57,171 nt of DNA from Candidatus Omnitrophota bacterium (GCA_041645145.1 JBAZQO010000002.1:1-57171); one strand, 5' to 3'; positions 916 to 56,845 are shown, counted from the stretch's first letter. Numbers and translations are program-made. Notes: a model not told the origin generated them from the letters alone.

Positions 916-980
916 ATAAAGGGGACGGTTCTATTTTTCCGTCTTTTTATAAGGTTGAAAAATAGAACCGTCCCCTTTAT
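916..980. repeat. Palindromic repeat family A, copy 1; probable intrinsic terminator after recX
   Basis: A perfect 23-bp inverted repeat: ATAAAGGGGACGGTTCTATTTTT (916-938) and AAAAATAGAACCGTCCCCTTTAT (958-980), with a 19-nt loop, followed by a T-rich tract. The 16-bp core GGGGACGGTTCTATTT recurs at 35564 and 44008. Confidence 0.9.
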
Positions 981-990
981 TTTCATCATT

Positions 991-3558
991 ATGAAAGCAG
1001 ATATTATAAGAGAAAATTTTTTGGCTTTTTTTAAGGCCAGGAAACACAAGATTGTTGAAAGCGATTCTTTAGTTCCCAAGGATGACCCTACTGTATTATT
1101 CACTCCTGCCGGGATGAACCAGTTTAAGAAAGAGTTTATGGGGTTTGATTGCGGATTCAAGCGCGCAGCTACCTGCCAGCGCTGCCTGCGCACGGATGAC
1201 TTGGATAAAGTCGGCAAAACAAGTGCCCATCACACTTTTTTTGAAATGCTGGGGAACTTTTCTTTTGGTGACTATTTTAAGCAGGAGGCGATTACCTGGG
1301 CCTGGGAGTTTCTGACTAAAGAATTATGTATAGATCAGGATAAGCTTTGGGTTTCGGTTTATCAGGAAGATGATGAAGCGTATAAGATCTGGAAAGATAA
1401 AATAGGCATACCTGAAAAAAAGATCGTAAAGCTCGGGGATAAAGGTAATTTCTGGCCCGCGGAGGCTAAAACAAAAGGTCCGAACGGGCCATGCGGCCCC
1501 TGCTCAGAGATATTTTATGATTTTGGGCCTGGCGTAGGCTGCGGTGAAAAGATTTGCGATCCATCCTGCAGTTGCGGAAGGTTTGTTGAAATATGGAATT
1601 TGGTCTTTACGCAGTTTAACCGTAAAGACGATGCAAGCTTAGAACCCCTACCGAATAAGAATATTGATACGGGTATGGGCTTAGAGAGGCTGGCTGCTGT
1701 TATGCAGGGCAAGCAGAATAATTTTGAGACAGAATTATTCCAGCCGATAATAAAAGAGATAATTCGGGGACTGTCCCCGAAGGGGACTGTCCCCGAAAAG
1801 AATCTTCTTTATGCTGTTGCCGACCATCTAAGGGCAGTGGTTTTTTCCATCTATGACGGGATTTCTCCGTCTAATGAAGGCCGCGGATATATAGTCAGGA
1901 AGATTATTCGCAAGAGCGTCTTGCATTTAAGAAGTTTAGGCATAAATAAGCCGTTCTTAAATAAGTTAGTCGGCCAGCTTGCCCAGATTATGCATACGCC
2001 TTATCCGGATTTAAAAGACAGGCAGGAGGATATTGCCCAGGTTATTTTGAATGAAGAGAAGAACTTTATTAATATCTTAAATTCAAGCGAAGTACTATTT
2101 GCTAAAATTCCTTTAAATGCCGATGCTGAAGAAATAGGTGCAGCCGTTTTTAAATTGCACGATACTTACGGGTTTCCTTCAGAGGAGATAGAAAAATGGC
2201 TAAAAAAACAGAAGGTTGAGAGTTTGGCAGCGATAGCTAGCGTTGTCAGTAGAAAATTTGAAGAGCAGCGGCAACGTTCTAAATCTCAGAGTAATATGAA
2301 GGGTGACGTTTTTGATACCAAAGGATTAGGTTTAAAACTAAATGAGACAAATTTTGTCGGGTATAAAGATGATTCCACAGAAGCAAAAATCCTGGCTATT
2401 TTGAAAGATGGCAAAGAAGTTATTTTAGATCAGACTCCATTTTACGCGGAATCCGGAGGGCAGGTTGGGGACACCGGTAAATTGATAAACGGGAAAAATG
2501 TTTTTGAGGTTTTAAACACGCAGAAGATTGATAATGTTATTTTACATATCGGCAAGATCAACTCCGGCGCCTTTAAAAAGGGCGACAAGGTAGTTGCCCA
2601 GATAAATATTGAGCGCAGACTGAATATTGCCAGGAACCATACAGCTACGCACATATTGCAGGCAGCTTTACGGGAAGTCTTGGGAAGCCATGTCCAGCAG
2701 CAGGGGTCTTTGGTCGCGGAAGGAAAATTCCGTTTTGATTTTACGCATTTTAAAGGGTTGTCTAAAGAGGAGATTTCCAGAGTTGAGGAGGTAGCCAATA
2801 GCTTTGTTTCCAAAAATCAGGCGGTGAGCTGCAAAGAGATGGCTTTTAAAGAGGCGAAGAAGGCAGGGGCATTGGCATTTTTTGAAGAAAAATACGGTGA
2901 AAATGTGCGCGTGGTTAGTATAGGGGATATTTCAAAAGAGTTATGTGGAGGTACACATCTTGCTAATATCGGTGAAATCGGCATTATAAAGATAATCAGC
3001 GAGGGTTCAGTAGCCAGTGGTATAAGAAGGATTGAAGGTGCCACTGCCAGTTTTGCAGAGCAGTTTATCAAGGATGAACAGGAGAAAGCTGTTGAAGAAT
3101 CTAAGAAGAGGAGTAAGTTAAAGGAGTTAAAGGAGCAAGAGAAGAAGCGCAACTTAGAGGTGACTAACAGCCTGCGTGATGCACTACCGAGGCTTACAGA
3201 GAAGGGGATAAAGATAAACGGTATAAATGTAGTTTCTTCGCTTGAGGTTGATTTAGATATGAATGCCTTGCGGTTTCTGGCGGATAAGCTAAAAGAGGAG
3301 TTAAAGCAAGGGGTGATTGTTTTAGGTTCGCAGGATAATGAGCAAAAGAGGGCATACTTGGTTATTGCAGTTACGCAGGATTTATTATCCAGGGGGCTGG
3401 ATGCGGGGGCATTGATCCGTCAGGTTGCTCCGGTTATCGGAGGCTCAGGCGGAGGCAGGCAGGATTTTGCCCAGGCAGGCGGGACTGCTCCGGAAAACTT
3501 TACATTGGCATTTGAGAAATTAAAGGATATAATTAATAAATTAAATATGGGCAGGTAA
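991..3558 (+). CDS. alaS: Alanine--tRNA ligase
   Basis: Contains HHTFFEMLGNFSFGDYFK, the editing-domain motifs HTATHIL and CGGTH, and a C-terminal GGSGGGRQDFAQAGG. The start is placed at ATG 991 (MKADIIRENF) rather than TTG 955, which lies inside the upstream hairpin. Confidence 0.97.
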   Translation: MKADIIRENFLAFFKARKHKIVESDSLVPKDDPTVLFTPAGMNQFKKEFMGFDCGFKRAATCQRCLRTDDLDKVGKTSAHHTFFEMLGNFSFGDYFKQEAITWAWEFLTKELCIDQDKLWVSVYQEDDEAYKIWKDKIGIPEKKIVKLGDKGNFWPAEAKTKGPNGPCGPCSEIFYDFGPGVGCGEKICDPSCSCGRFVEIWNLVFTQFNRKDDASLEPLPNKNIDTGMGLERLAAVMQGKQNNFETELFQPIIKEIIRGLSPKGTVPEKNLLYAVADHLRAVVFSIYDGISPSNEGRGYIVRKIIRKSVLHLRSLGINKPFLNKLVGQLAQIMHTPYPDLKDRQEDIAQVILNEEKNFINILNSSEVLFAKIPLNADAEEIGAAVFKLHDTYGFPSEEIEKWLKKQKVESLAAIASVVSRKFEEQRQRSKSQSNMKGDVFDTKGLGLKLNETNFVGYKDDSTEAKILAILKDGKEVILDQTPFYAESGGQVGDTGKLINGKNVFEVLNTQKIDNVILHIGKINSGAFKKGDKVVAQINIERRLNIARNHTATHILQAALREVLGSHVQQQGSLVAEGKFRFDFTHFKGLSKEEISRVEEVANSFVSKNQAVSCKEMAFKEAKKAGALAFFEEKYGENVRVVSIGDISKELCGGTHLANIGEIGIIKIISEGSVASGIRRIEGATASFAEQFIKDEQEKAVEESKKRSKLKELKEQEKKRNLEVTNSLRDALPRLTEKGIKINGINVVSSLEVDLDMNALRFLADKLKEELKQGVIVLGSQDNEQKRAYLVIAVTQDLLSRGLDAGALIRQVAPVIGGSGGGRQDFAQAGGTAPENFTLAFEKLKDIINKLNMGR
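1766..1797. repeat. Palindromic repeat family B core, in frame inside alaS
   Basis: A perfect tandem duplication of the 16-mer GGGGACTGTCCCCGAA (1766-1781 and 1782-1797). The same core occurs in the intergenic copies at 4804 and 18578. Here it is translated as GLSPKGTVPEK. Confidence 0.9.
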
Positions 3559-3559
3559 A

Positions 3560-4786
3560 ATGAAGATAATCAAAGCAACCAGCAAACAATTAGAGAAGGT
3601 TTATAACCGTAGCTGCGGCCGAAATAACCGCGTTGAGGAGAAGGTCAGAAGGATCATGGATGATGTGCGCCTTTTTGGGGATGAGGCGTTGATCAAATAT
3701 ACGCGCAAGTTTGACCGGGTTAAGCTTAGCCTGCGCCAGCTCAAGGTTTCAGAGAATGAGATAAGCGGAGCCTACCAGAACATCAGCCCGAATTTTATCG
3801 CTTCCCTGAAAGTGGTCATTGAGAATGTAAATCGTTTTTACCGCAAGCAGCTGCGCAAATCCTGGAGGATAAAAGGGCCTGAAGGGATAGTGCTGGGTGA
3901 GAATTATACGCCCTTAGAAAAGGTGGGGATCTATATCCCCGCCGGAACAGCGCCTCTGGTTTCCACTGTTTATATGACCGTATTGCCGGCAAAGCTGGCA
4001 GGCGTTAAAAAAATTATTTTGATCAGTCCGCCGGATAAAAACGGGAATATTAACCCGCACATCCTGGTCATGGCGGATCTTCTAAAGGTAGATGAGTTTT
4101 ACCGTGTAGGAGGAGCGCAAGGGGTTGCCGCCCTGGCTTACGGAACTAAGACCATCCCCCGCGTAGATAAGATCGTCGGCCCGGGAAATATTTATGTCAG
4201 CGAGGCCAAGCGCCAGGCATTTGGTATGGTAGATATCGATATGATCGCCGGGCCAACGGAGCTGGTGATCATTGCCAACCGTTTCAGCGACCCGAAGTTT
4301 GTCATCGCGGACCTGCGCGCGCAGGCCGAGCATGTCAAAGGTTTGGCTATATTGATCACAAATTCCAAGAGCCTGGCTAAAGAGGTTAAATCCCAGATGG
4401 ACGGCAATAACGGTTATATTGTCCTGGCCAAGAATTTAAAGCAGGCCTGCGAGATAGCCAACAGGATAGCCCCTGAACACCTTGAGATCCTATTGCAGAA
4501 CCCCGGCAGGCTGGTTAAATCCGTAAAAAATGCCGGTGCAGTATTCCTGGGTCCGTATAGTCCGGCGGCAGTCGGAGATTATGTAGCCGGGCCAAGCCAT
4601 GTTTTGCCAACGGCAGGCACAGCCAGGTTCTTCTCCGGATTATCTGTATTCGATTTTGTCAAAAGCACCCACATTATCAGCTATTCAAAAAAAGCGCTGG
4701 AGAAGATGCGCGAGCCGCTGGAGAAGATCGCCGGCATCGAAGGCCTGCAAAAACATGTGGATTCGGTGAAGGCGAGATTTGAATAG
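3560..4786 (+). CDS. hisD: Histidinol dehydrogenase
   Basis: A 408-aa HisD-like sequence (VGIYIPAGTAPLVSTVYM, IVGPGNIYV, AGPTELVIIA, EHLEI, AGAVFLGPYSPAAVGDY). It starts 1 nt after the alaS stop. Confidence 0.95.
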   Translation: MKIIKATSKQLEKVYNRSCGRNNRVEEKVRRIMDDVRLFGDEALIKYTRKFDRVKLSLRQLKVSENEISGAYQNISPNFIASLKVVIENVNRFYRKQLRKSWRIKGPEGIVLGENYTPLEKVGIYIPAGTAPLVSTVYMTVLPAKLAGVKKIILISPPDKNGNINPHILVMADLLKVDEFYRVGGAQGVAALAYGTKTIPRVDKIVGPGNIYVSEAKRQAFGMVDIDMIAGPTELVIIANRFSDPKFVIADLRAQAEHVKGLAILITNSKSLAKEVKSQMDGNNGYIVLAKNLKQACEIANRIAPEHLEILLQNPGRLVKSVKNAGAVFLGPYSPAAVGDYVAGPSHVLPTAGTARFFSGLSVFDFVKSTHIISYSKKALEKMREPLEKIAGIEGLQKHVDSVKARFE

Positions 4787-4803
4787 TCGCGCAAGCGTTG
4801 CCA

Positions 4804-4862
4804 GTAGGGACTGTCCCCGAAGGGGACTGTCCCACGACAAAATAAGTGTTGAATAGCTAGAT
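4804..4862 (+). repeat. Repeat family B, intergenic copy (hisD-hisB spacer), REP-like
   Basis: Sequence GTAGGGACTGTCCCCGAAGGGGACTGTCCCACGACAAAATAAGTGTTGAATAGCTAGAT. It is nearly identical over about 58 nt to 18578-18635. It has a GTAG head followed by two 11-13 bp palindromes. Confidence 0.9.
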
Positions 4863-4878
4863 GTTTTAAGGAGAAAGT

Positions 4879-5487
4879 ATGAGAAAAGCAGAAAAAGAAA
4901 GAAAAACGAACGAAACAGAAATTTCTATTAAATTAAATATCGATGGCACAGAAGAAAGAAAAATTAACACCGGTATCGGCCTTCTTGACCATATGCTGGA
5001 TTTATTTGCTTATTGGGGTCATTTTGATTTAGAGATAATTGTTAAGAGAGGCGATTTTAATATCGATATTCATCATACGAATGAAGATGTAGGTATAGTT
5101 TTAGGACAGGCTTTTAAAGATGCGTTGGGGGATAAAAAAGGGATTAATCGCATAGGTTCGGCATCAGTGCCAATGGAAGAAGTAACTGCTAGTGTTACAG
5201 TTGATATAAGCGGCAGGGGGTTTTTTAATGGGATAAAATCTGATGTTACAAAGGAGCTGTATTACCAAAAGGAAGAAGGGTATTCCTTTGAATACGCCAA
5301 TCATTTTTTTGAGGCATTTGCCAAGAGATTGGGGATGAACTTGGGTATCAAGATATCCGGAATTAATCCTGATATACATACAATGTTAGAGCCCGTTTTT
5401 AAAGGTCTGGGTATAGCTTTGGACCAGGCCACCCAGATTGACCCGCGCAGAAAAGGTATCCCTTCGACTAAAGGTGTGATTGATTAA
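4879..5487 (+). CDS. hisB: Imidazoleglycerol-phosphate dehydratase
   Basis: IGPD motifs GIGLLDHMLD and HHTNEDVGIVLGQA. AAGGAG RBS upstream. Noticeably AT-rich up to about 5400. Confidence 0.93.
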   Translation: MRKAEKERKTNETEISIKLNIDGTEERKINTGIGLLDHMLDLFAYWGHFDLEIIVKRGDFNIDIHHTNEDVGIVLGQAFKDALGDKKGINRIGSASVPMEEVTASVTVDISGRGFFNGIKSDVTKELYYQKEEGYSFEYANHFFEAFAKRLGMNLGIKISGINPDIHTMLEPVFKGLGIALDQATQIDPRRKGIPSTKGVID

Positions 5488-6101: not shown

Positions 6102-6826
6102 TCATACCGGCGATAGATTTAAAGGGCGGCAAGGTAGTCAGGCTTTTTCAGGGAAAGTTCAACCGGGAGAAAGTTTATTCCAGCGATCCGGTGAAGGTGG
6201 CCAAACACTGGGCCAGGCAGGGGGCGCAATTTTTGCACATAGTTGACTTAGACGGCGCGTTGAAAGGCACTCCCAAAAATTTGAAGGTGGTAAAGGAGAT
6301 CGCCGTTAAGGTCGGTATACCGTTTGAATTCGGCGGCGGGGTAAGAAGCATTGAGATGATCTCGAAGCTTCTTGCCTTGGGAGCGCAAAGGGTTGTCCTG
6401 GGAACAAAAGCGGCAAATGACGCGTCTTTCCTGAAAAAGGCAAAGAAGAAGTTTGGAGAAAAGATCATTATCAGCATTGACGCCAAAGACGGAAAGGTTT
6501 TGACCCGGGGGTGGAACCTGGGATCCACTAAAACCACGCTGGATTTTGCCGCGGAGATAAAAAAAGCGGGTTTTAAACAGTTGATTTATACGGATATCTC
6601 CAGGGACGGCACTTTAAGCGGCCCGAATATAAAAGGGATCAAGGAGTTGCTTGAGGGAACAGGTCTGAATGTTATTGCCTCCGGCGGCGTATCTGGTTTA
6701 GAAGACCTGCTTAAATTGAAGAAGCTTGAAAAGAAGGGGATTATTGCGGTTATAGTGGGTAAGGCCTTGTATGAGGGAAAGTTTACCCTTACCGAGGCTA
6801 TGAAAATAAATTATCCCGCCTCATAA
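6095..6826 (+). CDS. hisA: ProFAR isomerase (HisA)
   Basis: MLIIPAIDLKGGKVVRL..., HIVDLDGA, ISRDGTLSGPN and ASGGVS are typical of HisA. The last 4-5 codons and the stop (YPAS*) lie inside repeat family D. Confidence 0.93.
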   Translation: MLIIPAIDLKGGKVVRLFQGKFNREKVYSSDPVKVAKHWARQGAQFLHIVDLDGALKGTPKNLKVVKEIAVKVGIPFEFGGGVRSIEMISKLLALGAQRVVLGTKAANDASFLKKAKKKFGEKIIISIDAKDGKVLTRGWNLGSTKTTLDFAAEIKKAGFKQLIYTDISRDGTLSGPNIKGIKELLEGTGLNVIASGGVSGLEDLLKLKKLEKKGIIAVIVGKALYEGKFTLTEAMKINYPAS

Positions 6827-6872
6827 CATATGCTAAAATTCTCTACGATAATTTTGGCATATTCGGCGGGAT
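6813..6872. repeat. Palindromic repeat family D, copy 1
   Basis: A two-tier hairpin. The outer 8-bp stem is ATCCCGCC/GGCGGGAT. The inner 12-bp stem is ATATGCTAAAAT/ATTTTGGCATAT, with one G-U pair. A second copy lies at 56768-56845. The element overlaps the hisA stop codon. Confidence 0.9.
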
Positions 6873-17586: not shown

Positions 17587-18564
17587 TTGAAAAAAGTGGG
17601 GATTATCGGGGTAGGCGAATACCTGCCGGAGAAAATACTTACCAATGCGGATATTGAGAAGATGGTGGATACTTCCGATGAGTGGATTATCAGTCGCACC
17701 GGTATAAAAGAACGGCATTTAGCAGCAGCAGGCCAGGCTGCTTCGGATCTGGCTTTTAAAGCCAGCGTTCAGGCTTTAAATAATGCTAAGATCAAGCCTG
17801 AGGAGCTGGATTTGATCATCGTGGCAACAATTACCGGGGATATGCCTTTTCCTTCAGTATCCGCGATCCTGCAAAATCAACTGCAGGCTAAGAAAGCCGT
17901 TTGTTTTGATATCTCCGCTGCCTGCGCAGGTTTTGTTTATGGGCTTTCCGTGGCGCAGCAGTTTATTTCCTGCGGCACTTACAAGAATGCCCTGGTTGTC
18001 GGCTCTGAAGTCCTTTCTTCCATCACTGACTGGCAGGACCGCAATACCTGTGTATTGTTTGGCGACGGCGCGGGGGCGGTTGTCCTCTCAGAGGTAAAAT
18101 CCGGCGGCATTATTTCTACTTACTTAGGATGCGACGGCTCCAAAACCGGAATATTGAATATGCCTGCCGGCGGCTCGCGTAACCCGGCAACGCATGAGAC
18201 CGTGGAAAAACGCATGCATTATCTTAAGATGCAGGGTAATGACCTATTTAAGATTGCAGTTAATACCATGACTGAGGCTGCCAAGACAGTTTTGCGACAG
18301 GCAGGCATGACCTTTGCAGATGTGGATTTGATTATTCCGCATCAGGCAAACGCGCGGATTATCATGGCTGTAGCGAAAAAATTAGGCATTCCGGAAGACC
18401 GGGTTTATCTTAATATAGAAAGATGCGGGAATATGTCTAGCGCTTCCACGGTTACCGCGCTTTGCGAAGCAGTTCAGGAGGGAAAGGTAAAAAAAGGGGA
18501 TATCATCCTTTTAGACGCATTCGGGGCAGGTTTAGTCTGGGGCGCCTGCGTTATAGAATGGTAG
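17587..18564 (+). CDS. fabH: 3-oxoacyl-ACP synthase III
   Basis: DTSDEWIISRTGIKER, DISAACAGF (active Cys), HQANARI and GNMSSAS. TTG start. Confidence 0.95.
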   Translation: MKKVGIIGVGEYLPEKILTNADIEKMVDTSDEWIISRTGIKERHLAAAGQAASDLAFKASVQALNNAKIKPEELDLIIVATITGDMPFPSVSAILQNQLQAKKAVCFDISAACAGFVYGLSVAQQFISCGTYKNALVVGSEVLSSITDWQDRNTCVLFGDGAGAVVLSEVKSGGIISTYLGCDGSKTGILNMPAGGSRNPATHETVEKRMHYLKMQGNDLFKIAVNTMTEAAKTVLRQAGMTFADVDLIIPHQANARIIMAVAKKLGIPEDRVYLNIERCGNMSSASTVTALCEAVQEGKVKKGDIILLDAFGAGLVWGACVIEW

Positions 18565-18577
18565 TTATGTATTGCTA

Positions 18578-18635
18578 GTAGGGACTGTCCCCGAAGGGGA
18601 CTGTCCCACGACAAGTTAAGTGTGAATTACTAGAT
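18578..18635 (+). repeat. Repeat family B, intergenic copy (fabH-fabD spacer), REP-like
   Basis: Sequence GTAGGGACTGTCCCCGAAGGGGACTGTCCCACGACAAGTTAAGTGTGAATTACTAGAT. It ends exactly at the fabD ATG (18636), and no SD lies between them. Confidence 0.9.
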
Positions 18636-19547
18636 ATGGAAAAAAAGCTTGCTTATCTTTTTGCCGGCCAGGGCAGCCAGTATGTTGGTATGGGCAGGGA
18701 TTTGTACGAATCTTTCCCGGAAAGCAAAGCGGTCTTTGATAAGGCGGATAAGATCCTGGGTTTTTCTCTTTCCGGGCTTATCTTTAGGGGCGAGCCGGAG
18801 ATGCTCAAGCTGACCATTAACTCTCAGCCGGCAATACTTACAGCCAGCATTGCCGCATTCGAAGCGTTTAAAGCAAGGACTGATGTTAAACCGGCGTTTA
18901 TGGCGGGTTTAAGCCTGGGTGAATATTCCGCGTTGATTGCATCCGGAAGTCTTACTTTTGAAGCCGGGATAAAGCTGGTAAGAAAGCGCGCGGAGATCAT
19001 GGATGAAGCAGCGCGCAGGTATCCCGGGAAAATGGCTGCTGTCCTTGATCTGCCTTTGGAAAAAGTAAAGGATGCTTGTTTAAAACGCGGGGCGGAGATA
19101 GCCAACCTTAATGCTCCCGGGCAAATCGTTATTTCCGGAAAAGCTGAAGCGGTAAATGCGACAAAAGAACTTTGTGAACAGGCAGGGGCAAAAAGGGTAG
19201 TTGAGCTTGATGTAAGCGGAGGGTTTCATTCTTCTCTTATGATTGAGGCTTCCGCGGAGCTGAAGCATTTTTTGGAGAATACCCCTTTTTCATCTCCTCT
19301 TATACCTGTAGTAAGTAATTACACGGCAAGCCCTCAATATAGGTTACACCAGGTTCTTGAAAACCTGGTTTACCAGATGTATTCTCCTGTTAAATGGGAG
19401 GATTCGATGAGATTTATGCTGGCGCAGGGAATAACAAAATTCTTTGAATTCGGGCCAGGCAAGGTATTGAAAGGGCTGATGCGGCGCATAGATAGCAATG
19501 CGCAAGTCGTTAATATAGAAAAAAAAGAAGATATCTTGAGGAGGTAG
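18636..19547 (+). CDS. fabD: Malonyl CoA-ACP transacylase
   Basis: FAGQGSQYVGMG and GLSLGEYSAL (active Ser). Position within the fab cluster. Confidence 0.95.
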   Translation: MEKKLAYLFAGQGSQYVGMGRDLYESFPESKAVFDKADKILGFSLSGLIFRGEPEMLKLTINSQPAILTASIAAFEAFKARTDVKPAFMAGLSLGEYSALIASGSLTFEAGIKLVRKRAEIMDEAARRYPGKMAAVLDLPLEKVKDACLKRGAEIANLNAPGQIVISGKAEAVNATKELCEQAGAKRVVELDVSGGFHSSLMIEASAELKHFLENTPFSSPLIPVVSNYTASPQYRLHQVLENLVYQMYSPVKWEDSMRFMLAQGITKFFEFGPGKVLKGLMRRIDSNAQVVNIEKKEDILRR

Positions 19548-34376: not shown

Positions 34377-35558
34377 ATGAAAAAAGTGGTGTTGGCATAT
34401 TCAGGTGGATTGGATACCTCTTGCATAGTCAGATGGCTTAAGGAAAAAGGGTATGAGGTGATCTGTTTTGTGGCGGATCTGGGCCAGGGGTTGGGTCAGG
34501 GTGAAAGCTTTGGGGCAATTGAAGAGCGGGCTTTGGCTGCCGGCGCTTCAAAAGTTTATATCCGCAATCTGCAGGAGGAATTTATCGACGATTTTATAAT
34601 CCCCGCATTAAAAGCCAATGCGGTTTATGAGGGAAAATATTTTCTGGCTACGGCATTAGGCCGGCCTTTGATCGCCAAATATTTAGTGCAGATTGCGCAC
34701 AAAGAGAAGGCAGGAACGGTAGCGCATGGCTGTACCGGAAAAGGCAATGACCAGGTAAGGCTTGAGGTAGCCGTAGGCATACTTGACCCGAGATTAGAGA
34801 TCATTGCCCCTGTCAGAGAGTGGGAGTTTAAATCCAGGGAAGATGAGATTGAGTATGCCTTAAAACATAATATACCGATAGACGTAACCAAGAAAAAGCC
34901 TTACAGTGTTGACCGGAATATCTGGGGGGTTAGTATTGAAGCAGGTGTTTTGGAGAATTTGGAACAGGAACCGCCGGAAGACGCCTATATAATTACCAAG
35001 AGCCCTACGCACACTTTGAGCTATCCGCGGTATATTGAAGTAACTTTTGAAAAAGGCATACCGAAGAAAATCGACGGTAAGGTATTCAAATTGAAGAATC
35101 TGATCAATTATTTAAACGAACTCGGCGGGCAATTCGGCGTGGGCAGATCTGATATGGTTGAGAACAGATTAGTGGGGATTAAATCCCGGGAGGTTTATGA
35201 GGCCCCTGCCGCCACTATTCTTTATACCGCGCACAAGGAGTTAGAGGCGTTGGTGTTGGATAGGGAACTGGCGCATTTTAAGGAGATGATCAGCCTTAAA
35301 TACGCCGAGTTGGTTTATTATGGCTTGTGGTTTTCTGTTTTAAAGGAGGCGTTGGATGGTTTTGTAGAGAAAACGCAGAAGCAGGTCAGCGGCACCATAA
35401 AATTAAGACTGTCTAAAGGCACCTGTGTTGCTGTGGGCAGGAAATCCAGAAATTCACTTTATAAGAAAGAATTAAGCACCTACGGTAAAGATGATAAATT
35501 TGACCAGAAGCTGGCGGAAGGCTTTATCAAGCTCTGGGGAATGCCGTATAAGAGGTAA
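34377..35558 (+). CDS. argG: Argininosuccinate synthase
   Basis: VLAYSGGLDTS, AHGCTGKGNDQVR and the rest of the sequence are typical ArgG. Confidence 0.96.
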   Translation: MKKVVLAYSGGLDTSCIVRWLKEKGYEVICFVADLGQGLGQGESFGAIEERALAAGASKVYIRNLQEEFIDDFIIPALKANAVYEGKYFLATALGRPLIAKYLVQIAHKEKAGTVAHGCTGKGNDQVRLEVAVGILDPRLEIIAPVREWEFKSREDEIEYALKHNIPIDVTKKKPYSVDRNIWGVSIEAGVLENLEQEPPEDAYIITKSPTHTLSYPRYIEVTFEKGIPKKIDGKVFKLKNLINYLNELGGQFGVGRSDMVENRLVGIKSREVYEAPAATILYTAHKELEALVLDRELAHFKEMISLKYAELVYYGLWFSVLKEALDGFVEKTQKQVSGTIKLRLSKGTCVAVGRKSRNSLYKKELSTYGKDDKFDQKLAEGFIKLWGMPYKR

Positions 35559-35563
35559 AACAA

Positions 35564-35609
35564 GGGGACGGTTCTATTTGTCTAAATTTAGACAAATAGA
35601 ACCGTCCCC
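35564..35609. repeat. Palindromic repeat family A, copy 2 (after argG)
   Basis: A perfect 46-nt palindrome: GGGGACGGTTCTATTTGTCTAAA / TTTAGACAAATAGAACCGTCCCC. Confidence 0.9.
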
Positions 35610-35643
35610 AAGATTTCCGTTAGATGTTAGTTAAGGAGAAAAA

Positions 35644-39086: not shown

Positions 39087-39957
39087 AGGCTCAATTGTAG
39101 CCATAGTTACGCCTTTCCATAATGGCAAAATAGATGAAAATAAATTAAGAGAGTTGATCGATTTTCAGATTAAAAACGGGACCAGCGGGATTGTTCCCTG
39201 CGGCACAACCGGAGAATCCGCGACTTTAAGCTTTGATGAGCATGAAAAAGTAATTGAGATTACCATTGATCAGGCTGATAAAAGAGTGCCGGTAATTGCC
39301 GGCACAGGTTCAAATTCTACCGCAGAGGCGATCATGCTTACTAAAGAGGCGGCCGCTGCAGGGGCAGATGCCTCTTTGCAGGTTTCACCATATTACAACC
39401 GCCCAACCCAAGCCGGATTATATGAGCATTTTAAAGCCGTTGCCCAGTCAGTGGAAATACCGATCATTCTCTATAATATTGCCGTTCGCACCGGCGTAAA
39501 TATTGAGCCGGAGACAATCGCAAGGTTAGCGCAGGATTGCAAAAACATTGTGGCGGTAAAGGAGGCTTCCGGCAGCCTTGACCAGATGTCACGCATCAGG
39601 CAGCTTTGCCTTAAAAGTTTTGATTTGATTTCAGGGGATGATAGCCTGACTTTACCGGTATTAAGCATCGGAGGTACGGGAATAATTTCCGTAGTTGCCA
39701 ATATTGTTCCCGGGGACGTCGCGGCTTTAGTCAGCGCTTTTGAAAAAGGAGATATTGGAAAAGCTCAACAGTTACATTATAAATTATTGCCTTTGATCAA
39801 GGCGGTGTTTATTGAGACCAATCCTATCCCCGTGAAAACCGCAATGGGTTTATTAGGAATGTGCCGGCCGGATCTGCGTTTGCCTATGTGCAGTATGTCA
39901 GCGGCTAATTTAGAGAAACTTAAAGAAGCCCTTAAAGATTACGGTCTGTTAAAATAG
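39079..39957 (+). CDS. dapA: 4-hydroxy-tetrahydrodipicolinate synthase
   Basis: CGTTGES, PYYNRP and AVKEASG (Schiff-base Lys). Confidence 0.95.
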   Translation: MFKGSIVAIVTPFHNGKIDENKLRELIDFQIKNGTSGIVPCGTTGESATLSFDEHEKVIEITIDQADKRVPVIAGTGSNSTAEAIMLTKEAAAAGADASLQVSPYYNRPTQAGLYEHFKAVAQSVEIPIILYNIAVRTGVNIEPETIARLAQDCKNIVAVKEASGSLDQMSRIRQLCLKSFDLISGDDSLTLPVLSIGGTGIISVVANIVPGDVAALVSAFEKGDIGKAQQLHYKLLPLIKAVFIETNPIPVKTAMGLLGMCRPDLRLPMCSMSAANLEKLKEALKDYGLLK

Positions 39958-39992
39958 GGGACAGTTCTCCGATTGAGTCCAGAAACGTCCCT
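39957..39992 (+). repeat. Repeat family C, copy 1 (dapA-dapB spacer)
   Basis: Sequence GGGGACAGTTCTCCGATTGAGTCCAGAAACGTCCCT. It starts at the last base of the dapA stop codon. A second copy lies at 43120-43155; the copies differ only in the central 8 nt. Confidence 0.88.
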
Positions 39993-42287: not shown

Positions 42288-43144
42288 AGATTTTCTACGA
42301 TCCTAAAAAGCTAAGCGCGGCAATGCGTAGAATAAAGCGGGTTAGAAAACGCATAGGTTTTGTGCCTACGATGGGCGCATTGCACCCGGGGCATTTAAGC
42401 CTCATTAAACAGGCGCGCAAAGAGAATAATGCGGTAGTAGCGAGTATTTTTGTCAACCCGGCGCAGTTCGGGCCCAAAGAGGATTTGAAAAAATATCCCC
42501 GCCCGCTTAAAAATGATCTTACGCTTTGCCGCCAGGCAGGCGTGGATTTTGTATTCTTGCCGGATAGTAAGATTATGTATACCCAAGGTTATTCCACTGT
42601 TGTTAATGTGGAAGGGTTAAGCGATGTTCTTTGCGGCGCCATCAGGCGCGGGCATTTCCGCGGTGTAACTACCGTAGTTGCCAAACTGCTTAATATTGTC
42701 CGGCCGGACCTGCTTTATCTTGGCCAAAAGGATGCGCAACAGGCGATTATAATCGCCAGGATGATCAAGGATTTAAATTTCCCGGTTAAGGTTAAGGTTA
42801 TGCCTACCATAAGGGAAAATGACGGATTAGCATTCAGTTCGCGCAACGCCTGCTTAAGCAGGAAAGAAAGGAATGACGCGGTAGTTTTATCTAAAGCCTT
42901 ACGCCTTGCGAAGTCCCTGATTGATAATGGCCAGCGCCATACAGATAGAATTATAAGCAGGATGAAACAGCTTATTTCAAAAAAGAAATCAGCCAGGATC
43001 GATTATATTGTTGTCGTGGATTTAGAGAACCTTATGCTTCTAAAAAAGATAAAACCAGGCTGTCTTATTGCTTTAGCGGTAAGAATAGGCAAAACCCGGC
43101 TCATTGATAATACAGTTGTGGGGACAGTTCTCCGATTGAATTGA
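42284..43144 (+). CDS. panC: Pantoate--beta-alanine ligase
   Basis: VPTMGALHPGHLSL, FVNPAQFG and YLGQKDAQQ. The last 7 codons and the stop (GTVLRLN*) lie inside repeat family C. Confidence 0.93.
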   Translation: MKIFYDPKKLSAAMRRIKRVRKRIGFVPTMGALHPGHLSLIKQARKENNAVVASIFVNPAQFGPKEDLKKYPRPLKNDLTLCRQAGVDFVFLPDSKIMYTQGYSTVVNVEGLSDVLCGAIRRGHFRGVTTVVAKLLNIVRPDLLYLGQKDAQQAIIIARMIKDLNFPVKVKVMPTIRENDGLAFSSRNACLSRKERNDAVVLSKALRLAKSLIDNGQRHTDRIISRMKQLISKKKSARIDYIVVVDLENLMLLKKIKPGCLIALAVRIGKTRLIDNTVVGTVLRLN

Positions 43145-43155
43145 GAAACGTCCCT
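43120..43155 (+). repeat. Repeat family C, copy 2 (overlaps the panC 3' end)
   Basis: Sequence GGGGACAGTTCTCCGATTGAATTGAGAAACGTCCCT. The panC TGA stop (43142-43144) lies in the element's central region. Confidence 0.88.
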
Positions 43156-43993: not shown

Positions 43994-44007
43994 CAATTAA
44001 AAAACAA

Positions 44008-44061
44008 GGAGACGGTTCTATTTTTTACTATTTTTTAAATTTAAAAAATAGAACCGTCCCC
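44008..44061. repeat. Palindromic repeat family A, copy 3 (after the nadX-like gene)
   Basis: GGAGACGGTTCTATTTTTT (44008-44026) pairs with AAAAAATAGAACCGTCCCC (44043-44061), with one mismatch and a 16-nt AT loop. Confidence 0.88.
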
Positions 44062-44098
44062 CGGATTTTAAAAAAACGAAAGGGGGTGAATTGAGAAA

Positions 44099-54280: not shown

Positions 54281-56781
54281 AAATCGTAAAAACGGGCTTT
54301 ACAATCATTATTATTTTAACTTTAGCGGTTGATTCCCTTGCTTTGTCTGCCGGTTCAGCCGCGGCAAAGGAAACCGAGATCCTTTTTATGGCCAAAAAGG
54401 CATACGAGGACGGTTTTTACGAGGTCAGCCTGGGGATGCTGGAGCGTTTTCAAAAAGAGTTCCCGGGCTCAACTAAAGCAATGGAGGCCCGCCTTTTAAC
54501 GGGTGAGTGTTATTTTTATCAGGGTCGCTATCTGGAGGCATTAAATATTCTCGAAGGATTATTGGATGAGCCTGGTTCCAAGGATTTCAGGGACGCTGTT
54601 TATTTCTGGATTGGCGAGGTGCATTTTAAAGGCAATAATTACGAGAAGGCGGCAGCCTTTTATGAATCGGTGATCAAGGACTTTCCGCAGTCATTTTATA
54701 CGCCGGCAGCGTATTATTCGCTGGGCTGGTCATTTTCTCTTTTGGGAAAATACAGCCAGGCCTTGCAGGCCTTTGAACTCCTACGGGGAAAATTCCCCAA
54801 AGAACCTCAAAGTAAAGATGCCGCTTTCAAGATAATCGAGTGTCTCTACAATCTTAAGGAATACTCCTATTTGAGAAACAGGATCAAGCCTTATTTTAAA
54901 CTTTACGCGGATGACGCATTACGCCTATCTTATTTGTATTTTTACCTGGCTGAATCTGATTATTACCTGAATAACCTTGAGGAGGCAGCCGGTAGTTACC
55001 TTAAATCCTCTCAGGTGACCGGGGATGATAAGGTCAGAGGGCTGGCTCACTTAGGGTTGGCCTGGTCTTATCTTAAGCTTAAAAGATATAAAGAAGCGGA
55101 GGAAGTTTTCGCGGATATCAAGCAATCCGGTTTAGATAAGAAGAGTATGGATATCCTGTTATTGGGCCAGGCAGTGTTGATGTTTCAGACCAACAGGGTG
55201 TATGAGTCAAAGAAGATTTATGACCAGATTATTAGTGTAAGCAGCGATCCCCTAATATTAGTCCAGGCTTATTTGGGCAAAGCCGACACGCTATATAATC
55301 TCGCAGAATACGCCGGAGCAGCAAAAGTATATAAGGAAGGCCTGGATAAAACAGATAAAGACAGCGGAAAGGCTGGCGTGCCTGCGGAGCTGATAAATAA
55401 ACTGCGTTATAACTTAATCCTGGCTTACATTAAACAGGGCCAGTTGCAGCCGGCAATAGAGGAACTTAAGAATTTCGCCGGAAAGAGCCCTGACCAGGAA
55501 GCAAGGGTTGGCGCGTTTTCTCAAATCGGGGACGCTTATCAGAATAGCGGTGAATTTGCCAAGGCAGAAGAAACTTACGCAAATATCCTCAAAGATTACC
55601 CCAATTCATCCTACGGCGATTACGTGCAATATCAGCTGGGTGTGGTACAGTTAAAGAAAGAAGACTTAACGGCAGCAATAGCATCATTTAAGCTTATGAT
55701 TAAGAATTACGCGCAGTCAAGGCTGCTGGATGACGTGGTTTATTCCCTGGGTTTGGTTTATTTCCAGAAGGAAGATTATATTGCCGCTTGTGACATTTTT
55801 ACTAAGTTTCAAAGTAAGTTCAAGGATAGCCCGCTAGCCGCCAAAGCCCTTTATATGCTGGGGGTATGTTTTCTTAACCTGGGTAAACCAAACGAAGCGC
55901 TTTTTGTCTTTAAGGATATTAGCAGGCAGAATCCACAGGATACCGAATTATTTCAAAAAGCCGAATATGAAGTTGCAGATTGTTATTATAAATTAGGCCA
56001 GGAAAAAGAGGCGGTTAACCGGTTTAAGCTTTTGCGCGCCAGATATCCTGATTCAAAGGTTACCCCGGAAATTATGTGGTGGCTGGGGCAGTATTATTAC
56101 CGGCATGATGACCTGAATTTGGCAGGCAGATATTTCAGTTCTTTGGTCAGGGATTTTCCCGACAGCAATCTGGCCGGAGATGCTTTTTATGCCTTGGGTT
56201 TAACTTTTAGCGAGGAAGGCAAGCTTACGCAGGCAGCTGATAATTTTAAAATGGCAATTAAACTTGGCAATGCCGGTATAAAAGGCCAAGCCGCAATAGC
56301 TTTAGGGGATCTTTATTGCCGGGAAGGAAAGTTTGAAGAGGCGCTCGCCAAATATAAGGAGATAATCAGGGATAACCCGGATATAGGTAAGCTGCTTTTT
56401 TCCCAAATTGCGCAGACTTATTACAAAATTGGAGATTATGACGGGGCAAAATTATTCTATTCCAAAAGCCTTGAGGCCGCCGGCGCTAAGGAGGCATCCG
56501 GCATCCGGTTTGGTTTAGCCGAGGCGCTTGAGGCCAAGTCGGATTTTGACGCGGCAATCCAGCAGTACCTTTTGGCGGCCAGCCTTTATACAGGGCAGGG
56601 GGAGTTATTTTCGCGCGCGCTTTTACGCGCAGCCAAACTTTATGAAGATAAGGAAAATTTCAAAGAAGCGCTGAAGATTTATAGGCGGATTATCCAGAAG
56701 GGCGCACCCGAGGCAGAATTTGCCCAGGAAAGAATAGACTGGATTAACACGAACGTGAGGGTAAAATATCCCGCCTCATAA
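54277..56781 (+). CDS. Secreted tetratricopeptide-repeat protein (YbgF/BamD-like TPR units)
   Basis: N-terminal signal sequence, then more than 15 repeats of the pattern A.Y.LG.CY...G.Y..A...F..L...YP.S. The last 4-5 codons and the stop (YPAS*) lie inside repeat family D. Confidence 0.85.
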   Translation: MKIVKTGFTIIIILTLAVDSLALSAGSAAAKETEILFMAKKAYEDGFYEVSLGMLERFQKEFPGSTKAMEARLLTGECYFYQGRYLEALNILEGLLDEPGSKDFRDAVYFWIGEVHFKGNNYEKAAAFYESVIKDFPQSFYTPAAYYSLGWSFSLLGKYSQALQAFELLRGKFPKEPQSKDAAFKIIECLYNLKEYSYLRNRIKPYFKLYADDALRLSYLYFYLAESDYYLNNLEEAAGSYLKSSQVTGDDKVRGLAHLGLAWSYLKLKRYKEAEEVFADIKQSGLDKKSMDILLLGQAVLMFQTNRVYESKKIYDQIISVSSDPLILVQAYLGKADTLYNLAEYAGAAKVYKEGLDKTDKDSGKAGVPAELINKLRYNLILAYIKQGQLQPAIEELKNFAGKSPDQEARVGAFSQIGDAYQNSGEFAKAEETYANILKDYPNSSYGDYVQYQLGVVQLKKEDLTAAIASFKLMIKNYAQSRLLDDVVYSLGLVYFQKEDYIAACDIFTKFQSKFKDSPLAAKALYMLGVCFLNLGKPNEALFVFKDISRQNPQDTELFQKAEYEVADCYYKLGQEKEAVNRFKLLRARYPDSKVTPEIMWWLGQYYYRHDDLNLAGRYFSSLVRDFPDSNLAGDAFYALGLTFSEEGKLTQAADNFKMAIKLGNAGIKGQAAIALGDLYCREGKFEEALAKYKEIIRDNPDIGKLLFSQIAQTYYKIGDYDGAKLFYSKSLEAAGAKEASGIRFGLAEALEAKSDFDAAIQQYLLAASLYTGQGELFSRALLRAAKLYEDKENFKEALKIYRRIIQKGAPEAEFAQERIDWINTNVRVKYPAS

Positions 56782-56845
56782 CCTATGCCAAAATTCTCTC
56801 GCCTGCCTTTGGCAGGCGCGACAATTTTGGCATATTCGGCGGGAT
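56768..56845. repeat. Palindromic repeat family D, copy 2
   Basis: Same basal stems as copy 1 (ATCCCGCC/GGCGGGAT and TATGCCAAAATT/AATTTTGGCATA). An extra nested 8-bp GC hairpin (CGCCTGCC-TTT-GGCAGGCG) sits in the apical loop. The element overlaps the stop of the TPR gene. Confidence 0.9.

Follow-up and report, generated by a model that had tools for sequence, protein, structure and literature searches.

A probable REP-type hairpin repeat at operon junctions and within a gene of a Candidatus Omnitrophota bacterium

Introduction

A 57,171-nt stretch of DNA from a Candidatus Omnitrophota bacterium (GCA_041645145.1, JBAZQO010000002.1:1-57171; hereafter the window), which comes from a groundwater metagenome, carries closely similar repeats at two operon junctions, one between hisD and hisB and the other between fabH and fabD. 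An initial annotation, made from the sequence alone, read each repeat as a GTAG head followed by two tandem palindromes and an asymmetric tail. It proposed either a REP/BIME-like mobile or formerly mobile element or a double operator for a dimeric DNA-binding protein. What, then, are these repeats, and how did they come to lie between the genes of these operons?

Here we describe the anatomy of the repeats, the distribution of their copies, their association with transposase genes in other phyla, and their gain and loss between relatives. We conclude that they probably belong to a REP-type family, that is, to the short, non-autonomous, hairpin-forming DNA repeats associated with RAYTs (REP-associated Y1/HUH tyrosine transposases).

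Results

Anatomy of the copies in the window

The identities of alaS, hisD, hisB, fabH and fabD are backed by Pfam, and the coordinates of these genes and of the repeat copies are collected in Table 1. Both intergenic copies lie where they were first reported (4804-4862 and 18578-18635), and a repeat search of the window aligned 52 nt of them at 94% identity. They are not the only copies. The core, GGGACTGTCCCCGAAGGGGACTGTCCC, occurs three times in the window, in the hisD-hisB gap, in the fabH-fabD gap and, in frame, in the interior of alaS (core at 1767-1793), where it had been overlooked. When at most one mismatch is allowed, the half-site GGGACTGTCCC has 12 matches on both strands versus 0.48 expected, a count that none of 100 shuffles reached.

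Table 1. Genes and repeat features in the window (positions counted from its first nucleotide)
Feature	Position	Strand	Sequence	Remarks
alaS	955-3558			
Short-form copy in alaS	1763-1797	+		35-nt palindrome, TTCG + core + CGAA, in frame
hisD	3560-4786			
Copy 1, head	4793-4806	+	GCAAGCGTTGCCAGTA	Kept in 11 aligned long-form copies
Copy 1, core hairpin	4807-4833	+	GGGACTGTCCCCGAAGGGGACTGTCCC	12-bp stem, central T·T mismatch, GAA loop
Copy 1, tail	4834-4862	+	ACGACAAAATAAGTGTTGAATAGCTAGAT	Sequence conserved, no conserved structure
hisB translation start region	4863-4881	+		AAGGAG 4868-4873, ATG 4879-4881; directly 3' of tail
hisB	4879-5487			
fabH	17587-18564			
Copy 2, head	18565-18580	+	TTATGTATTGCTAGTA	Begins immediately after fabH stop codon TAG 18562-18564
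Copy 2, GTAG	18578-18581	+		
Copy 2, core hairpin	18581-18607	+		Identical to copy 1 core
Copy 2, tail	18608-18635	+	ACGACAAGTTAAGTGTGAATTACTAGAT	Adjoins fabD ATG 18636, no Shine-Dalgarno sequence
fabD	18636-19547			

The unit shared by copies 1 and 2 begins upstream of GTAG, where copy 1 has GCGTTGCCAGTA and copy 2 has GTATTGCTAGTA. The head of copy 1 starts 7 nt past the hisD stop codon (TAG, 4784-4786), and its GTA together with the first G of the core makes up the GTAG at 4804-4807. In contigs from another metagenome (run X3), unrelated flanks join the element at 4793-4802. The GTAG head that was first noted is present in both copies, but it is neither the start of the shared unit nor, as described below, a property of the whole family. 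The contrast drawn earlier between the two translation starts holds, with an AAGGAG following the hisB copy and the fabD copy running directly into its ATG. The window copies are single hairpins with an unstructured tail and not inverted pairs of the REPIN or BIME kind.

A single long hairpin with a conserved mismatch

Two readings of the core are possible, because repeating a palindrome in tandem yields a further palindrome. The two tandem palindromes of the initial annotation, with centres 16 bp apart, are present as sequence, but they fold together into a single stem of 12 bp that has a T·T mismatch at its centre and ends in a GAA triloop. RNA folds of 71-91-nt segments gave z-scores of -3.1 to -7.2. 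As DNA, the 27-nt core folds at -12.2 kcal/mol on the top strand (z -4.05) and -11.0 kcal/mol on the bottom strand, and the alaS copy at -18.2 kcal/mol (z -6.85). Consensus folding of 11 long-form copies with RNAalifold returned about -21 kcal/mol for the core hairpin only and no structure in the tail. The conserved tail of about 30 nt that was reported at first thus stands as a conserved sequence of the long form but not as a conserved structure.

Variants of the core point in the same direction. An A-T pair is flipped on both arms in the GGGTCAGACCCC..GGGGTCAGACCC variants (GGGTCAGACCC variants), and in the GGGACAGACCCC...GGGGTCAGTCCC variants the long hairpin is intact with each half-palindrome destroyed. 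The central mismatch is retained in about 170 of 180 pairs, and covariation between GTA/TAC and GCA/TGC in the aligned long-form copies lengthens the stem by 3 bp. Variants of this kind accompany exact copies in other genomes, and they favour the long hairpin as the unit under constraint. The apparent invariance of the 27-mer is partly a selection effect, since the loci were chosen by an exact 27-mer match. Loop length varies from 3 to about 27 nt among copies, and half-site spacing therefore varies as well. Overall, the palindrome GGGGAC[T/A]GTCCCC is the conserved unit. Here it occurs as a tandem pair, which on one strand folds into a hairpin of 12 bp, mismatched at its centre (T·T or A·A) and closed by a GAA/TTC loop.

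By direct reading, the 27-mer is free of stop codons in all six frames. The core is followed by ACGACAA, without the T-run of an intrinsic terminator. A scan for promoter and terminator consensus sequences found nothing at either junction, where no terminator site lies on the plus strand, and its counts were equal to those in shuffled sequences. Elsewhere, runs of A and T flank some copies, which may act as terminators. Over the whole window, Rfam gave no match at the gathering score, and in the region 4700-4950 a limit of E up to 1 gave none either.

Distribution across phyla

The exact 27-mer occurs at more than 117 loci in a collection of species-representative genomes, and the family extends far beyond the copies first reported. 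The hosts of the listed loci include Omnitrophota (52), 'Planctomycetia/Planctomycetales' (28), Actinomycetes including Gaiellaceae (17), Gamma- and Betaproteobacteria (8), Aminicenantes/Acidobacteriota (7) and 'Eubacteriales' (4); these are MAG labels, and they cover at least five phyla. The GC content of the loci ranges from 0.34 to 0.73. The listed matches include several contigs per MAG, and mis-binning cannot explain the spread because several matches lie on megabase contigs from long-read assemblies. An assembly artefact was also rejected, the repeat being present in MEGAHIT, SPAdes and long-read assemblies of many groups as well as in the Logan contigs of the source run. No exact match to the 27-mer was found in viral contigs, and hence there is no sign of a phage origin. 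A CRISPR-like array was considered and rejected, as the copies show no regular spacing. A full-text literature search for the half-site sequence gave only unrelated matches, such as eukaryotic primers.

In the source run, the hairpins are points at which the Logan contigs break. The hairpin reaches a k-mer depth of 242 in the source sample, compared with a contig baseline of about 27 (approximately 9-fold), a figure to which other organisms may contribute; in a second groundwater run the values are 920 and about 6. All sequencing runs found to hold the sequence in a search for RNA-seq data were DNA runs.

Flanking sequence differs among loci. The base preceding the core is A in 80% of copies and the base following it is T in 70%, and GTA precedes the core in only 15 of 124 copies (12%). 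Both reported copies have a GT[AG]G foot, as do many of those in Actinomycetes; the alaS copy and the RAYT-flanking copies are without it. The flanks extend the stem by at least 3 bp in 24 of the 124 copies, versus about 2 expected.

Hairpin doublets were found only in Actinomycete loci. In the MAGs L001, L020, L038, L064, L066, L072, L077, L087, L105 and L110, the hairpin is followed at a distance of about 30 nt by a variant of itself in inverted orientation, GGGTCAGACCCC(TTC/TGC)GGGGTCAGACCC (GGGTCAGACCCCTTCGGGGTCAGACCC), in which one base pair is flipped, and the two form a REPIN- or BIME-like doublet. Most of these doublet copies have the GTAG foot.

Association with RAYT genes

Clustering of all ORFs of the 117 listed loci revealed a small protein family resembling Y1 transposases. 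In two Aminicenantes MAGs (L011 and L030), the exact hairpin lies on both sides of a Y1 transposase gene in inverted orientation. These genes match PF01797 at 54 and 47 bits (cutoff 23), and their best NCBIfam model is REP_Tyr_transpos, at 70 and 61 bits and under its cutoff of 80; the two proteins are 67% identical. Relatives at 58-64% identity in L198 and L202 have inverted flanks with the same stems and other loops (TTTGAA, CTG, TCTGCG). The same Maf/TrmA neighbour is kept in both, which suggests a vertically kept, single-copy RAYT gene. Directly downstream of the Aminicenantes-type RAYT gene of L202, five tandem copies of the inverted hairpin follow one another with a 47-nt period (918-1150).

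RAYT relatives at approximately 44-46% identity, in L129 (Nitrospira), L400 (GC 0.46) and L401 (GC 0.45), carry single AAAAGGGGAC[A/T]GTCCCCTTTT palindromes on both sides, again inverted. In L401, a Firmicute-like locus, GerA and spore permease genes adjoin the RAYT; the genes around the RAYT of L400 point to no particular taxon. The RAYT of L402 (about 50% identity) is flanked by double hairpins, and in several of the relatives at about 44-50% identity the repeat encodes the C-terminus of the protein. RAYT genes with GGGGACWGTCCCC flanks are thus found in diverse hosts, and GGGGACWGTCCCC is therefore the repeat module of a multi-phylum RAYT clade. Such a clade matches the patchy distribution of RAYTs, which has been attributed to horizontal transfer and loss (PMC6006769).

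For the family, though not in the window, we thus find the arrangement that characterises a REPtron, a PF01797 gene with inverted flanking repeats. The inverted, RAYT-flanking hairpins of L011, L030, L198 and L202, together with the multi-copy nature of the repeat and its variability at orthologous junctions, lend substance to the original proposal of a REP/BIME-like element that is or was mobile.

As already noted by the initial annotation, the window itself contains no RAYT; tblastn with four RAYT queries returned nothing. No RAYT flanked by the GGGACTGTCCCCGAAGGGGACTGTCCC hairpin was found in contigs labelled Omnitrophota. RAYT-like genes lie near the hairpin in four Omnitrophota-type loci (L048, L063, L112 and L201), where they have other flanking repeats, partly similar ones in L048, L112 and L201 (e.g., GTAGCCTGTCCCC). 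Among the best 80 loci with RAYT relatives in genome contigs (at most 46% identity), most carry other repeats and the module is present only at L129.

Gain and loss at orthologous junctions

At the fabH-fabD junction, the element is absent from the three closest relatives (L230, L236 and L203; FabD 87-91% identical), in which the two genes overlap (ATGGTAG). This overlap reads GAATGGTAG and contains the fabD start; in the window (18555-18640) the genes are separated by the element. Full copies are present at the same junction in the more distant relatives L210 and L017. One 16-nt unit is deleted in the fabH-fabD copy of L222 and in a second copy of L017, and in L226 the head and tail enclose a middle of another kind.

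Of 33 Omnitrophota relatives, most have a short hisD-hisB gap, and the same long form occurs among them only in L243, with a nested middle. In other relatives, repeats of at least five further families lie between these two genes. In L244, L245 and L247 (Omnitrophota MAGs) another GTAG-headed hairpin, GTAGGGGAGGTTTAAACCTCCCCTAC, is found there, and L241, L246, L255 and L266 have TCGATAGTCGATAG-type repeats.

Three further gaps, plsX-fabH, leuC-leuD and leuD-leuB, are empty in the window and filled in L017, L206, L034 and L033, and in some of these relatives an inverted hairpin is nested inside the loop of another copy. In L033 (1027-1134), a copy with a 27-nt loop insertion replaces the C-terminal codons of leuD (..KKHSSRDCPRR*) and supplies an in-frame upstream ATG for leuB (MSQKMYK..).

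Since the element is absent from the closest relatives at both junctions and present in other relatives at junctions that the window has empty, it has been gained and lost and is no conserved operator. It is neither limited to the two copies first described nor conserved at orthologous positions in the nearest relatives, so that both grounds for refutation named in the initial annotation fall away. Compared across these genomes, its behaviour is that of mobile or unstable DNA gathering in tolerated gaps, and not that of a conserved regulatory site.

The window also contains other repeats. A second family (914-982, 35557-35616 and 43997-44072) consists of inverted pairs of about 26 nt, AAAGGGGACGGTTCTATTT / AAATAGAACCGTCCCCTT, set 0-17 nt apart and resembling REPIN doublets. 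Its pair at 914-982 lies just upstream of the alaS start and overlaps it, and the same family occupies the hisD-hisB gap in L251 and L254. A third repeat, GGGGACAGTTCTCCGATTGA..GAAACGTCCCT (39957-39992 and 43120-43155; 92% identical), has the GGGGAC motif in common. A 53-nt direct repeat (6807-6859 and 56762-56814; 81% identity) is unrelated to the GGGAC family, and its second copy is overlapped by an inverted repeat at 56784-56834 with 24-nt arms, 92% complementary, and a 3-nt spacer.

The long form between cistrons

Copies 1 and 2 belong to a subfamily, the long form, that is confined to one Omnitrophota clade. In this form the hairpin is preceded by a head of about 14 nt (..TTGC(C)AGTA) and followed by a tail of about 30 nt (..AGCGAGATAAGTnTTGA..GAGAT..GCCAAAAGG). 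All 20 of the long-form copies examined lie between co-directional genes in sense orientation, a number that overstates the independent cases because some junctions are orthologous. Each copy spans from within about 10 nt of the upstream stop codon to between 0 and about 25 nt from the next start codon. The long form would therefore be transcribed, by its position, within the polycistronic mRNA as a stable stem-loop, uncoupling genes that overlap in relatives, and its tail would supply a new translation start region for the next gene. REPs of E. coli have been shown to act as a barrier to 3' exonucleases, and by analogy a role as such a barrier, or as an mRNA stabiliser, is plausible for the long form.

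These features raise the question of whether the element serves operons first and foremost as a functional RNA module, an intercistronic stem-loop with its tail that is kept by selection rather than by transposition and that stabilises the upstream mRNA, provides processing sites or serves translation of the next cistron. The uniform sense placement from stop to start would suit such a module, as would a conserved tail that adjoins or contains the start codon, a very stable RNA hairpin and the lack of an intrinsic terminator (no T-run and no sense-strand match). However, the downstream genes are unrelated (hisB, fabD, fabH, fabG, leuD and leuB), the nearest relatives lack the element and have overlapping genes, and different repeat families occupy orthologous junctions. 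The same hairpin also occurs within coding regions in both orientations, and neither a conserved structure past the hairpin nor an Rfam match was found. We therefore regard an RNA module as an unlikely origin of the element; a role in RNA would be compatible with a REP-type repeat as a secondary effect.

Copies within genes

In low-GC loci, 32 of 68 copies are intragenic, lying in long ORFs in either orientation, and 24 lie between co-directional genes; none of the 68 lies between convergent or divergent genes. A single frame, giving G[LQ]SP[KS]GTVP, is shared by 22 of 26 intragenic copies from these loci. The alaS copy of the window encodes RGLSPKGTVPE in the variable linker of AlaRS, with no net gain in length relative to the A. 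aeolicus and E. coli enzymes. At this site, L321 has the same copy, the orthologue in L039 has an exactly inverted copy at the same place, L337 has an inverted copy with another loop, and L320 has a decayed copy. The site is free of the repeat in L323, L324 and L334, where the linker measures 26 aa versus 29.

In further metagenome contigs (L322, L328, L329, L331, L344, L346, L349 and L353), the alaS linker holds unrelated in-frame palindromes or short tandem repeats. Those of L349 and L353 are perfect palindromes of 42 nt, that of L349 being GCCACCCCTGGGGTGGACCAGCTGGTCCACCCCAGGGGTGGC.

The hairpin is also found in frame in rfbB in 25 of the 117 listed loci, always in one loop of RfbB just past the GxxGxxG helix. 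These loci include L008, L027, L067 and L091, and the encoded enzyme is dTDP-glucose 4,6-dehydratase. Several copies or half-copies lie in the rfbB loop of L067 and L091, and rfbB thus joins alaS as a second hot spot of intragenic copies. REPs and Rickettsia palindromic elements (RPEs) that lie in frame within genes are already known (PMC3733652, PMC6006769); compared with these, the intragenic proportion and the frame bias of the present family are high.

The intragenic sites also bear on whether the repeats might spread or be renewed without any RAYT, by template switching at palindromes, by gene conversion among copies or by another enzyme, in which case the RAYT link would not apply to Omnitrophota. 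Such processes would be consistent with the exact inversion of the alaS copy in L039, with copies nested in the loops of others, with the excess of stems extended by their flanks, with the unrelated palindromes in the alaS linker of relatives and with the finding of no Omnitrophota RAYT that carries the hairpin. We nevertheless consider them very improbable, as local mutational processes alone would hardly yield identical 27-mers over the full GC range of the loci, and at least 7 independent RAYT loci have the module on both sides.

The double operator of the initial annotation, double-stranded DNA bound by a dimeric regulator, is hardly credible: two 11-bp palindromes with centres 16 bp apart and the occurrence of single GGGGACWGTCCCC palindromes elsewhere would agree with it, but copies lie within coding regions, alaS and rfbB among many others, and their contexts in at least five phyla are unrelated, half-sites are separated by 3 to about 27 nt, variants break the half-palindromes yet keep the hairpin, and the same junctions lack the element in the nearest relatives.

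Discussion

A model for spread and retention

Under the REP-RAYT reading, which we consider the probable one, a RAYT encoded elsewhere in the genome would recognise the hairpin in single-stranded DNA and would cut and rejoin it, and copies of the hairpin would thereby spread to new sites. Selection would filter the insertions into operon junctions and permissive protein loops, so that they would persist where they are tolerated, that is, in short gaps between co-directional genes and in permissive loops of proteins. Copies would later be lost or would decay by deletion of a 16-nt unit, by nesting and by changes of the loop.

A bolder reading, which we put forward only tentatively and think rather doubtful, is that one REP module (GGGGACWGTCCCC, with the exact 27-mer as its tandem pair) is common to the RAYT systems of at least five phyla, and that Omnitrophota have co-opted it both as a start-bearing intercistronic cassette and as an in-frame G-x-S-P-x-G-T-V-P loop of housekeeping proteins, AlaRS and RfbB among them. 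A host-associated lifestyle has been proposed for Omnitrophota, and under this reading it might have helped RAYT and REP sequences to move between phyla. REPIN-RAYT systems have been described as vertically inherited and lineage-specific. Sharing across phyla may mean that recognition between RAYT and REP has been conserved for far longer than this lineage-specific picture implies, or that RAYT and REP have repeatedly passed from phylum to phylum among co-resident groundwater and soil bacteria. One hairpin that can be traced over phyla and over a RAYT clade offers a direct test of strict REP-RAYT verticality.

For annotation, the family accounts for the repeated breaks in assemblies of Omnitrophota MAGs and the odd spacers between their genes, and for short GLSPKGTVP or GQSPSGTVP peptides in conserved proteins. 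It also provides natural variants for studies of recognition, namely single and double palindromes, flipped pairs, a kept mismatch and variable loops.

Comparison with known systems

The closest likeness is to the REP/BIME elements and RAYTs (TnpA_REP) of Enterobacteria, Pseudomonas and Stenotrophomonas. In both cases the repeat is a short, GC-rich, imperfect palindrome with a conserved internal mismatch and varies among relatives. The present repeat also appears to occur in many copies, often past stop codons between co-directional genes, and the two reported copies have the GTAG foot. Other features are atypical and count against this assignment. The GT[AG]G foot is found in 12% of the present family, the copies of the window occur singly, about half of those in low-GC loci fall inside genes, and no cognate RAYT was found in the window or, with the hairpin, in the Omnitrophota contigs scanned. 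REP families are usually species- or genus-specific, whereas the identical 27-mer occurs here in several phyla. The Aminicenantes-type loci, with a single Y1/HUH gene between inverted copies, resemble the REPtron arrangement described for TnpA_REP (PMC6006769).

The REPINs of Pseudomonas fluorescens are doublets of REPs (Bertels and Rainey 2011, PMC3116915). The Actinomycete hairpin and its inverted variant GGGTCAGACCCCTTCGGGGTCAGACCC, about 30 nt away, form a comparable doublet; in contrast, the Omnitrophota copies are single hairpins with an asymmetric tail.

The intragenic copies recall RPEs and intragenic REPs (Di Nocera et al. 2013, PMC3733652; Quentin et al. 2018, PMC6006769), which are likewise palindromic repeats set in frame in protein-coding genes without disrupting them. 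They also share the use of permissive regions and the recurrence of different elements at one site of a gene. Unlike RPEs, the present element measures 27-35 nt (versus approximately 100-150 nt for RPE-1), occurs far outside Rickettsia and is open in all six frames, with a strong bias towards a single peptide frame.

The subterminal hairpins of IS200/IS605 elements and their miniature derivatives are similar as well, being imperfect hairpins with a mismatched base, of the type that Y1 HUH enzymes recognise in single-stranded DNA. The present element differs in having no left and right end pair, no internal transposase or tnpB, and no identified target tetranucleotide.

Taken together, the family as a whole shows the main features of REPs with an associated RAYT, and on the sequence comparisons made here the element appears to function like one. 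Its identity across phyla and its intragenic bias might be worth the attention of specialists; the basic picture of REPs is unchanged by the present findings.
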